The notes beneath the pieces were generated by a model. That model was not told where the DNA came from. It saw only the letters and a program-made list of their open reading frames with translations, and ran no database searches. This document shows positions 13,918 through 15,945 of a stretch of 64,000 nucleotides of DNA, one piece after another (the stretch's first letter is position 1; each line of letters begins with the position of its first letter). The stretch comes from Candidatus Puniceispirillum sp. (GTDB taxonomy: Bacteria; Pseudomonadota; Alphaproteobacteria; Caedimonadales; UBA1908). The stretch spans positions 128,500 to 192,499 of the forward strand of contig PNJU01000002.1 of the NCBI GenBank assembly GCA_013822015.1. Direction: 5' to 3'. The translations under genes and the position numbers were made by a program.

Positions 13918-15945
13918 TTATTTGCGCTTTTTCTTTCCACCCTTGGCGTTTTTTCCACCAGGCTTTGCTTTTGTTTTGTGTGAAGATGATGAGGCCGCTT
14001 GACTTGACGATGCTTGCGCGTAGCTTTGGGCGAGTTGTGTTTTCAGATTTTTATAATGCCCAAAGGCGCTTAAAATCGTGACATGGTATTCATGCGCGCC
14101 CGTTGGGGTTACGCGGTACGTCAAACGATTACCCTTATCAAAGCGGTAAGAAAAAAGCCCTTTTTCGCCCACGAGGGCTTCAAATTGCCCCATTTTATGG
14201 CCATACCCAAAGGGATCTGCCGCAATTTGGGCCATAAACATGTCATACTTTTTTTCGTGACCACTGATTTGCCTTAGTTTTTCAAGTTGACCAGGCACGT
14301 GGCGCAGCATTGTAAAGGTGACCTGGGGCGCAAAAGATGCCTCGGGCAGGACCTGCGCGTCACTGGATGATGAAGAGACGACAAGTCTGGGGGCCGCCGC
14401 GACGGTTGAAACGTGTGCTGTGTCCAGTTTCGCGTGCCCAAACTGCGCGCGTATATTGGATGTCGATACAACAGGCATTAAATCTGCTGCCTCGTGCCCC
14501 AGGGATTCAAGAAACGCTAACGACTTTTCTTTGCGATCAATCTTACAAGCTTCTTGGTATTTTTTCTCAAGGGAGCCATAGGCTCTTTCATGGGCGGCAA
14601 GATCTCGCTGTGCCGTCAAAAGGGTTGTGTCGCAAAAGGCAGATCCAGTTGAACTTGATGAGGCCGCTCCAGAAGCGCTGCTATTGATGTCAAGGCGTTG
14701 CACATTATCAATCAGCACATTTAGAGCCTCCATAAGGTGGGCATGTGCACGCGCTTGTGTTTGAAAATGCTCAGATGTGCCAAATGAAATTTTTTCTATT
14801 TTTTTTGAAAGGGTCTGGCAACGCAATGTGAGGTCGCTTTTGAGGTGTTGTTTTATCGTCTGCGTCATTGCCTCAGGGGAAGGCCTCTTTGTCACCTTTG
14901 ACGATTTTGTGGTGACACGCGATGTCATAAGGAGGCGCGCACTTGGTTTCAACTTGTTATGAAGAGCGATTATCTTTTCGACTTTGTCGCGTTGATTGGT
15001 TTGGCTATAGGCTAACGCGGCATTGAAAAAGATCGTTGAAGACAAACTTTTAAGATCCCGTTGTTGCGCAGCAGCACCACCCCCAAGGATCTCGTCATAG
15101 CAACGAACTGCTTTTTCTGCATCCCCAAGGGCTATATAGGCGTCACCAAGGTTAAATACGCCTCCTAAATGGCGTCCTTCAAACGGGGTTGAGTTATAGT
15201 ATTTTTCAAGCAAATTACGCGCTTCTTCTAGATTGCCGTCAAGACGAAATATAGAGCTAGCAGTGACATAATAAAAAGGGTCGACTTTCCATTCCGATTT
15301 TTCAAAGAATGCGTTCCAGTGATCAATGGCTTTCCTAAACTCAAGATTCACAGAGAAAACTTGCGCCGCTACGACATGAGTCTCTGCGGTCAAAGCGATC
15401 CTTTTTTGAGAGGCAGCCTCCAAAAAACAATCCATGTACTTAGAAGCATTTTTCGCATTTTTTTCTTTTTCACTCAAAGACAAACTATAGTAATTACACG
15501 CAGCGTTATAATATGTATTTGGATCTATATTTTCTTTATCTTCTTCGAGAGAATAATACTCTCGATAATGATAAGCAGCCTCTCGATGGTTATTTTGCAT
15601 CCCGGCGCATACAGCTGTGATCAGGTGAGTGTGTTTATCATGCGCGCCGCCTGCGTTTATGAATTTTTGGATAAGATCAAGGGCTTGGATGTATTTGCCA
15701 TTGTCCATTGCCTCGTTGGCACGCCATACAAATTCGTTTAGGTGTTTTGTATGCGCGTCTGTGGCCTCACGCCATACGAAGGTTTGTGTCCCGATGTCTG
15801 GATCTGCATTTTGGCCGGATGAAGAAGCTATCGAACTTGGCATGCGCTCCCCAGCATCGGACGCGTCAAGACCATCCGCACTGGCACACGCAAGGGCTGG
15901 ATAAACAAGCAGAGCTGCAAGAAGAGAAAAAGTGATTGAGTGCAT
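13918..15945 (-). CDS. Secreted TPR-like repeat protein with a C-terminal YoeB/RelE-superfamily toxin-like domain and a Lys-rich tail
   Basis: Signal peptide MHSITFSLLAALLVYPALACASA. TPR-like segments (GDAYIALGDAEKAVRCYDEIL and others). Residues 542-634 (nt 14044-14322) read VTFTMLRHV...DPFGYGHKMGQFEALVGEKGLFSYRFDKGNRLTYRVTPTGAHEYHVTILSAFGHY, which follows the YoeB/Txe pattern. The tail is ...KAKPGGKNAKGGKKKRK. Confidence 0.75.
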   Translation of the reverse strand: MHSITFSLLAALLVYPALACASADGLDASDAGERMPSSIASSSGQNADPDIGTQTFVWREATDAHTKHLNEFVWRANEAMDNGKYIQALDLIQKFINAGGAHDKHTHLITAVCAGMQNNHREAAYHYREYYSLEEDKENIDPNTYYNAACNYYSLSLSEKEKNAKNASKYMDCFLEAASQKRIALTAETHVVAAQVFSVNLEFRKAIDHWNAFFEKSEWKVDPFYYVTASSIFRLDGNLEEARNLLEKYYNSTPFEGRHLGGVFNLGDAYIALGDAEKAVRCYDEILGGGAAAQQRDLKSLSSTIFFNAALAYSQTNQRDKVEKIIALHNKLKPSARLLMTSRVTTKSSKVTKRPSPEAMTQTIKQHLKSDLTLRCQTLSKKIEKISFGTSEHFQTQARAHAHLMEALNVLIDNVQRLDINSSASGAASSSSTGSAFCDTTLLTAQRDLAAHERAYGSLEKKYQEACKIDRKEKSLAFLESLGHEAADLMPVVSTSNIRAQFGHAKLDTAHVSTVAAAPRLVVSSSSSDAQVLPEASFAPQVTFTMLRHVPGQLEKLRQISGHEKKYDMFMAQIAADPFGYGHKMGQFEALVGEKGLFSYRFDKGNRLTYRVTPTGAHEYHVTILSAFGHYKNLKTQLAQSYAQASSSQAASSSSHKTKAKPGGKNAKGGKKKRK

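Follow-up and report, generated by a model that had tools for sequence, protein, structure and literature searches.

A divergent YoeB-like toxin domain at the C-terminus of a putatively exported tetratricopeptide repeat protein of Candidatus Puniceispirillum sp.

RelE/YoeB toxins are textbook intracellular regulators, which are controlled by an antitoxin and act on the translation of the cell that makes them. What, then, is such a domain doing at the end of a 675-aa protein that begins much like a secreted one and has no antitoxin gene beside it? The question was raised by a gene in a 64,000-nucleotide stretch of a metagenome-assembled genome (MAG) named Candidatus Puniceispirillum sp. (contig PNJU01000002.1, positions 128,500 to 192,499), and this whole stretch is called the window here. 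The open reading frame (ORF) spans 13918–15945 on the minus strand, exactly as an earlier note on this DNA had given it, and an AGGA ribosome-binding site lies 5–6 nt upstream of its ATG. The encoded protein is identical to the MAG protein C0514_02025 at NCBI, which is annotated as "hypothetical protein" and lies on a 268-kb contig. Sequence comparison and predicted structures suggested, with a probability that we put at roughly 0.55, that it is a Sec-exported, antitoxin-free RNase toxin of the YoeB type directed against a different cell, with a eukaryotic host as the most probable target. The earlier note had also proposed that a toxin fold was recruited into a large exported effector, and this was still the best reading, since a YoeB domain ends a large protein with a signal-like N-terminus and without an antitoxin.

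The YoeB-like domain and its catalytic positions

Judged from profiles and from its modelled fold, the C-terminal domain is a divergent relative of YoeB and not a canonical member of the family. As a single sequence it matched PF06769 (YoeB_toxin) at E = 0.0076–0.08 with 13–17 bits (best 16.7, against a curated cutoff of 27) and TIGR02116 at E = 1.7e-4 with 21.7 bits (cutoff 51.8). A single-sequence phmmer search against the PDB gave only non-significant matches (RelK, E = 1.8). In this search the Rhs protein Tre23 and phage Gene 33 also came up; both were rejected as spurious, as the string "YRFDKGNRLTY" resembles a YD repeat and the profile and fold searches both converged on YoeB. PADLOC and PHROGs scans gave no meaningful matches, so neither descent from a phage nor a defence system already known was indicated.

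A profile was built from an alignment of 20 homologous domains, which were found by the exhaustive search described below. Against the PDB, this profile aligned over its whole length with RelK (E = 2.5e-6) and S. aureus YoeB (E = 2.6e-6), the terminal His-Tyr falling at matching positions, and hhalign with E. coli YoeB gave E = 1.9e-5. Taken one by one, 18 of the 20 family domains matched PF06769 at E ≤ 0.1 (best E = 6e-8). The AlphaFold2 (AF2) model of the domain from the 20-member alignment had a mean predicted local distance difference test score (pLDDT) of 90.1 and a predicted TM-score (pTM) of 0.83, and it showed a beta-alpha-alpha-beta4 fold plus an extra C-terminal helix. In a Foldseek search of the PDB, the ten best matches of this model were all YoeB or RelK (6n90, 7v6w, 8yxv, 3oei, 2a6r, and others), with a probability of 1.00 and target-normalised TM of 0.63–0.79; Txp40, Cami1, YafQ, HigB, and ParE came after them. 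The earlier note had described a 93-aa block (nt 14044–14322, aa 542–634) following the YoeB/Txe pattern, and had named a comparison with the RelE/YoeB families by hidden Markov model (HMM) or structure as the way to check it. The block was present, and the comparison yielded a supported match and a compatible fold, so the assignment stood.

The YoeB residues E46, R59, R65, H83, and Y84 were mapped to E589, R601, R607, H630, and Y631 by profile alignment and hhalign, the latter pairing the Glu and the two Arg directly. Six residues (R601, D603, N606, R607, H630, and Y631) were invariant in the 20-member alignment. The E46 position was occupied by Glu in 5 of the 20 members, including the window protein, and by Lys in the other 15. 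On this alignment, the window protein is one that holds the complete YoeB set, and most of its relatives are more RelE-like, without an acidic base. Among the paralogues, the toxin domain was the best conserved region, with 60–67% identity to P0002, P0003, and P0004 compared with 33–37% for the TPR (tetratricopeptide repeat) region. This pointed to selection on the toxin domain.

Compared with the free toxins YoeB, Txe, and RelK (PF06769, TIGR02116; 2a6q, 6n90, 7v5y, 3oei), the domain shared the fold, the ...SRR.D..NR.VY...HY motifs, the invariant equivalents of R59, R65, H83, and Y84, and, in the window protein, E46. However, those toxins are free cytoplasmic proteins of 84–90 aa, whereas the domain studied here is the C-terminus of a 675-aa protein that starts with a signal-peptide-like segment. 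No YefM/Phd/Axe antitoxin was found here either as an adjacent gene or as a domain of the protein, and a helix and a polybasic tail follow the His-Tyr. By fold and catalytic residues the protein thus belongs with the YoeB/Txe family, and by curated score thresholds, operon structure, and single-domain form it does not.

Export, antitoxin, and the rest of the chain

The layout of the whole protein was taken from a full-length AF2 model with a mean pLDDT of 73.6 (Table 1). The earlier note had seen a cleavable-looking signal peptide at the N-terminus, which stood in part. In the N-terminus MHSITFSLLAALLVYPALACASA, a hydrophobic core of 16 residues was accompanied by an AxA-type motif (ALA/ACA), and complete tripartite signals, with Lys or Arg, a hydrophobic stretch, and a small-x-small site, were found in about 13 of the 16 full-length homologues. 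However, the n-region of the window protein contained neither Lys nor Arg.

The TPR-like repeats reported earlier were well founded. Pfam TPR_2 matched at E = 6.7e-7 (29.4 bits, cutoff 27) and TPR_16 at E = 2.6e-5, and there were further, weaker TPR matches. Residues 64–332 were predicted as 16 helices with a pLDDT of ~90, and the best Foldseek match of this part was an eight-repeat consensus TPR (E = 6e-8, target-normalised TM 0.68). Pfam, AF2, and Foldseek therefore all described the tandem 34-residue helix-turn-helix superhelix by which TPRs are recognized.

What had been read as one long Ser-rich linker was such a linker only at aa 421–441 and 508–540, which were Ser-rich and disordered; aa 353–482 contained three confidently predicted helices. 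This three-helix region aligned across all full-length homologues, with the Ser-rich loop at aa 421–441 interrupting the helices, and on the model it is possibly a coiled coil or an oligomerisation module. Residues 483–540 were disordered in the full-length model. Within this segment, ~40 residues before the toxin domain and at low pLDDT, there was a conserved linear motif, which reads N497-I-R499-A-Q-F-G-H504-A-K506 in the window protein. Among the 16 full-length members, R499 was invariant and N497 and K506 were conserved in at least 90%. The motif may be where the protein is processed, or it may act as a docking peptide. The helical domain and the motif inside the supposed linker were absent from the earlier note, as were the multi-copy tandem family and the Lys that replaces the catalytic Glu in most relatives.

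Behind the His-Tyr, residue L634 in the extra helix was invariant in the family alignment. The KKKRK tail was confirmed, the protein ending in ...GGKKKRK. A terminal run of Lys and Arg (KKKRK, GKKRR, ARKRR, GKRRR, or KKKKK) was found in all 11 members of the clade of the window protein, and it was absent from the aspS-linked clade. The string KKKRK is identical to the core of the SV40 nuclear localisation signal. The earlier note had likened the tail to such a signal and had also brought up the positively charged C-termini of some type IV secretion substrates. In a eukaryotic host, this clade-specific run could serve for nuclear or nucleolar targeting, or for binding to RNA or to membranes (acidic lipids).

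Table 1. Features of the 675-aa protein, given as positions in the window, and related tandem loci, given as positions in each locus
Feature	Residues	Position	Strand	Evidence or remark
Signal-peptide-like segment (MHSITFSLLAALLVYPALACAS)	1–22	15880..15945	−	Sequence; AF2 helix 2–21, then disorder; homologue N-termini
Disordered Ser/Asp/Gly-rich spacer	23–63	15757..15879	−	pLDDT ~30; composition
TPR-like alpha-solenoid, ~8 repeats	64–332	14950..15756	−	Pfam, AF2, Foldseek
Three long helices	357–384, 392–416, 442–482	14500..14889	−	AF2, pLDDT 80–90
Conserved linear motif (TSNIRAQFGHAKL)	495–507	14425..14463	−	Family pattern N-[LIM]-R-[AGS]-[QL]-[FY]-G-H-x-K
Ser/Ala-rich disordered linker	508–540	14326..14424	−	pLDDT <50; poorly conserved
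YoeB/Txe-type RNase toxin domain	541–632	14050..14325	−	Profiles, hhalign, AF2, Foldseek, residue conservation
Extra C-terminal helix past His-Tyr	633–653	13987..14049	−	AF2: 93–104 of domain model, 634–653 of full-length model
Disordered polybasic tail ending KKKRK	654–675	13921..13986	−	Last 25 residues: 10 Lys/Arg, no Asp/Glu
Two tandem copies between rplI/TPR_21/cytidylyltransferase and fliS-fliD		L002 9674–14113; L005 7888–12067
One copy and fragments after rnd-aspS		L003 9560–14513
At least seven full-length copies and fragments after rnd-aspS		JGI metagenome 3300059473, 183,858-bp contig

The earlier note had found no antitoxin-sized gene adjacent to the toxin gene, and this was essentially borne out. 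The start codon of a 50-aa ORF (13766–13918, minus strand) overlaps with the stop of the toxin gene (TAATG), and a perfect 16-nt palindrome, GTGTATACGTATACAC, follows at ~13725–13745. This ORF was considered as an antitoxin or immunity gene and rejected, because tblastn found no counterpart in the five related loci (L001–L005); from this comparison it is probably not a gene. No small genes were present in the 3–110 bp gaps between tandem copies, and a Pfam scan of the 675-aa protein detected no Phd/YefM domain. A phmmer search of the window and the loci, translated in six frames, with YefM and RelB as queries gave no match, and this was a weak test, with approximate query sequences and the power to detect only close relatives.

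A rare family in tandem arrays and its relation to known toxins

Residues 535–640 were used as the query of an exhaustive HMMER scan, which covered 1.84 billion representative proteins and gave 25 matches at E ≤ 1e-3, of which 16 were at E ≤ 1e-10. These proteins were mostly 670–720 aa long, and the domain was always C-terminal. The family is rare, with ~20 representatives in that set. Word-indexed homology searches, whether made with the full protein or with the domain profile, recovered next to nothing, and the family surfaced only in the exhaustive search. A literature search found no paper describing a TPR-YoeB family.

The MAG of the window contained at least three paralogues, namely C0514_02025, C0514_06195 (P0002), and C0514_07985 (P0003), the latter two on other contigs. 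A motif-pattern search of 185,579 species genomes found three related loci in only two other MAGs, "Proteobacteria bacterium CAED1" (two loci) and "Alphaproteobacteria bacterium MCMED-G24". Tandem copies were mapped by a six-frame HMM scan together with the gene tables of the loci. The arrays occupied two conserved chromosomal sites, one after rnd-aspS and the other between rplI-TPR_21-cytidylyltransferase and fliS-fliD; another orthologue was located between parAB and tgt. Some of the copies on the JGI contig were auto-annotated by IMG as "TPR repeat protein/Txe/YoeB family toxin". One array copy had an in-frame stop, in an assembly of only ~1x coverage. Three paralogues in one MAG, together with relatives in which two to at least seven copies stand in tandem beside decayed fragments, make up an effector-like pattern of population genetics. 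As to base composition, the toxin gene of the window had lower GC (0.46) and GC3 (0.43) contents than the four neighbouring genes that were measured (0.49–0.55 and 0.52–0.61, respectively).

On profile comparison, the insecticidal Txp40 of Xenorhabdus and Photorhabdus (PDB 7xbj) is a precedent for a host-directed toxin that ends in a YoeB-like module. Txp40 is a secreted anti-eukaryotic toxin, and its C-terminal ~95 residues (272–367 of 368) matched the YoeB-like profile at E = 5.2e-5 and in Foldseek at E = 2.9e-3. However, the N-terminal part of Txp40 is unrelated and has no TPR solenoid, and 7xbj was outside the top 50 Foldseek matches of our full-length model, which were TPR proteins only. 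Size, taxon (Gammaproteobacteria), and copy number also differed, and the homology did not extend over the whole protein. The Tox-RelE and other RNases of the Barnase-EndoU-ColE5/D-RelE fold, which are known from polymorphic toxins and from colicins E5 and D, are likewise placed C-terminal to a linker in a large exported protein (PMC3482391). Polymorphic toxins differ in that they carry variable toxins, adjacent immunity genes, and Rhs, filamentous haemagglutinin, PAAR, LXG, or WXG parts, whereas here the toxin was constant, no immunity gene was adjacent, and a TPR solenoid and helices made up the rest. The combination of variable C-termini, a conserved N-terminal scaffold, and adjacent immunity was thus not found, and Zhang et al. 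(2012; PMC3482391) met the classical RelE domain in a single polymorphic toxin.

The reuse of a toxin–antitoxin (TA) fold against a eukaryotic host is also seen in the Bartonella Bep effectors from FicT/VbhT (PMC5675462), the zeta-like AvrRxo1 (PMC4938570), and rickettsial VapC (PMC12321070). These effectors have FIC, zeta kinase, and PIN folds, use the BID domain of type IV or the signals of type III secretion systems, and keep or derive from TA pairs; unlike the domain described here, none of them is a ribosome-dependent RNase of the RelE/YoeB type. YoeB/RelE domains inside larger proteins were compiled in a survey of multidomain RelE/ParE forms (Gerdes, 2025; PMC11980606), which included YefM-YoeB and RHH-YoeB fusions, the transmembrane ToxM, and PtuXYZ. 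In contrast to our protein, those forms hold an antitoxin domain or partner and are explained as a defence against phages inside the cell. The survey nowhere uses the words TPR, signal peptide, or secreted, and it explicitly sets aside antitoxin-less multidomain forms.

Target cell, mode of action, and alternative explanations

The window encodes two further proteins of eukaryote-like type. In a 591-aa protein (60166–61941, minus strand), leucine-rich repeats (LRR) come after an F-box of the eukaryotic type (PF12937, E = 5.5e-9; PF00646, E = 1.2e-7), an architecture typical of effectors that hijack host ubiquitination, and a 601-aa protein (20804–22609, minus strand) has a signal peptide and ankyrin repeats. 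Beside the ankyrin protein, two paralogous proteins of ~190 aa with signal peptides and without known domains are encoded at 19470–20048 and 20180–20740 (both minus strand). The genes at 19470–22609 are probably a cluster of secreted proteins beside the genes of a type VI secretion system (T6SS). F-box/LRR, ankyrin, and small secreted proteins are characteristic of bacteria able to manipulate a eukaryotic host. Because the F-box/LRR and signal-peptide ankyrin proteins are encoded in the same window, a eukaryotic host was favoured as the target of the toxin, most likely a protist on the sequence evidence. The nearest named MDH belonged to the amoeba nucleus symbiont Candidatus Nucleicultrix amoebiphila, with 69% identity vs. 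66–67% for many other alphaproteobacteria, which is a weak leaning toward Ca. Nucleicultrix and the Holosporales.

The action of such a toxin might be as follows. The putative signal peptide would carry the unfolded protein over the inner membrane, and the RNase domain would never fold in the cytoplasm of the producer; export in the unfolded state may be the reason why no antitoxin or immunity gene accompanies the signal-like N-terminus. The protein would leave the periplasm via a type II secretion system, vesicles, or lysis rather than the T6SS. The TPR solenoid and the helical region, which diverged faster than the toxin domain, may bind a protein or receptor of the target cell or drive oligomerisation. 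Release of the C-terminal module by cleavage near the N-x-R-x-x-[FY]-G-H-x-K motif or in the Ser-rich linker is speculative. By homology, the module would be a YoeB-type, probably ribosome-dependent endoribonuclease that cleaves mRNA on ribosomes. Toxins of the RelE family can cut mRNA on the ribosomes of eukaryotes and have toxic effects in yeast and in human cells, and RelE cleavage in the A site of the eukaryotic ribosome appears to be the subject of a published paper. A bolder proposal, possible on the sequences and models and in our opinion rather doubtful, is that these proteins form a Sec-exported, antitoxin-less family of YoeB-type mRNA interferases, arranged in tandem arrays in protist-associated alphaproteobacteria, which act as inter-kingdom effectors and cut host mRNA or nuclear/nucleolar RNA on eukaryotic ribosomes; KKKRK would then direct the released module within the host cell, and the motif would be a site of processing or auto-inhibition.

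If the exported-toxin reading is true, the protein would be a clear case of a TA toxin turned outward as a weapon or as a tool of host manipulation, with export replacing immunity. Under the bolder proposal, the family would be the first of ribosome-dependent RelE/YoeB-class toxins shown to act as secreted anti-eukaryotic effectors. The protein would give a concrete, testable candidate effector for poorly understood alphaproteobacteria that possess F-box and ankyrin proteins, and the pre-toxin motif and the SV40-like tail offer handles for studying processing and targeting in the host cell.

Several observations weighed against the exported-toxin reading. The putative signal peptide of the window protein has no basic n-region, the paralogue P0002 and the distant member P0019 had no N-terminal signal as called, and no route past the inner membrane was identified. 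The domain scored under both curated cutoffs, the general-base Glu of YoeB is a Lys in three quarters of the aligned members, and the chain runs on as a helix past the His-Tyr, residues that are C-terminal in YoeB; either the replacement of Glu or the helix extension might alter or eliminate catalysis or binding to the A site. The eukaryote association is based on the two eukaryote-like proteins and the weak MDH affinity. In addition, the organism need not be an obligate symbiont, given the chemotaxis genes in its genome and the flagellar genes in its relatives. One such chemotaxis gene, at 11594–13600 (plus strand), encodes a methyl-accepting chemotaxis protein that ends in a PilZ domain (MCPsignal, E = 2.5e-28; PilZ, E = 8.8e-6). 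By its domains this would be a chemoreceptor linked to c-di-GMP, which points to a motile organism and not to an obligate intracellular symbiont.

The gene lies next to T6SS genes in divergent orientation, as the earlier note had stated. At a distance of 445 bp, a single 631-aa ORF (16391–18286, plus strand) fuses TssB/VipA (aa 10–150, E = 1e-42) to TssC/VipB (aa 205–625, E = 1.5e-121), which are normally encoded by two separate sheath genes. Downstream, a 206-aa ORF (18323–18943, plus strand) is followed by TssE. The 206-aa ORF occupied the position expected for the Hcp tube gene; its sequence matched nothing in Pfam or the PDB, and it may encode a tube protein that has diverged strongly. No further T6SS genes were found among the tested large ORFs of the window. 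The T6SS of Holosporineae has been described as "non-standard" and without a recognisable Hcp (PMC11909080), and the gene set of the window fits this description.

The neighbourhood raised the question of whether the protein is itself delivered by the T6SS, from a position beside tssBC-tssE. In Holosporineae, the T6SS is considered the foremost candidate for the delivery of effectors (PMC11909080), and a T6SS effector candidate of Vibrio proteolyticus shares homology with Txp40's C-terminal domain (PMC7641602). However, the relatives in L001–L005 and on the JGI contig were found among housekeeping or flagellar genes, adjoining rplI/fliD, aspS/rnd, or parAB/tgt and never T6SS genes, and the two paralogues of the same MAG were on other contigs. 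Pfam showed no PAAR, VgrG, MIX, or Rhs marker in the protein, and a Sec signal peptide would take it out of the cytoplasm, where the cargo is loaded. Neither a conserved linkage or marker domain nor signs of cytoplasmic loading were thus present. Since synteny was not conserved and the Sec-type N-terminus conflicts with loading onto Hcp, VgrG, or PAAR in the cytoplasm, the adjacency appears to be coincidental, the functional link suggested earlier was not supported, and delivery by the T6SS was considered highly improbable.

Two other explanations seemed somewhat less remote, and both were still judged unlikely. A bacteriocin-like toxin, in which the TPR/helical part would serve for receptor binding or translocation and the YoeB RNase would kill competitors in the manner of colicins E5 and D, would agree with the bacterial ribosome as the natural substrate of YoeB, with the diversified N-terminal parts of the paralogues, and with the order of a large N-terminal part, a linker, and a small C-terminal RNase that colicins and polymorphic toxins also have (PMC3482391). 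However, sister cells would be unprotected, as there was no immunity gene beside the examined copies or between the tandem ones; the C-terminal domain was constant and not polymorphic; and Pfam detected no Rhs, PAAR, filamentous-haemagglutinin, or colicin translocation domains. The protein might instead be an envelope or regulatory protein of the producer, with the YoeB-like domain as a degenerate binding module or, as in Cami1, an auto-inhibited RNase. TPR and coiled-coil domains are typical scaffolds, sensor-fused RelE folds exist (Cami1, 8phb, was in the Foldseek list, and multidomain forms are described in PMC11980606), and the Lys at the E46 position of most members as well as the extra helix after the His-Tyr would suit a module of this kind. 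Yet the two Arg, the His, and the Tyr were invariant across sequences of 32–67% identity, which is hard to reconcile with a non-catalytic module, and RelE itself functions without a Glu base. Tandem expansion to multiple copies, with decay, is atypical of housekeeping scaffolds, and the periplasm offers no obvious RNA substrate.

As regards RNA genes, Rfam found no rRNA gene in the 64-kb window. It detected a cobalamin riboswitch and three tRNA genes, at 758–983 (minus strand), 1186–1257 (plus strand), 9494–9575 (minus strand), and 35817–35889 (minus strand).

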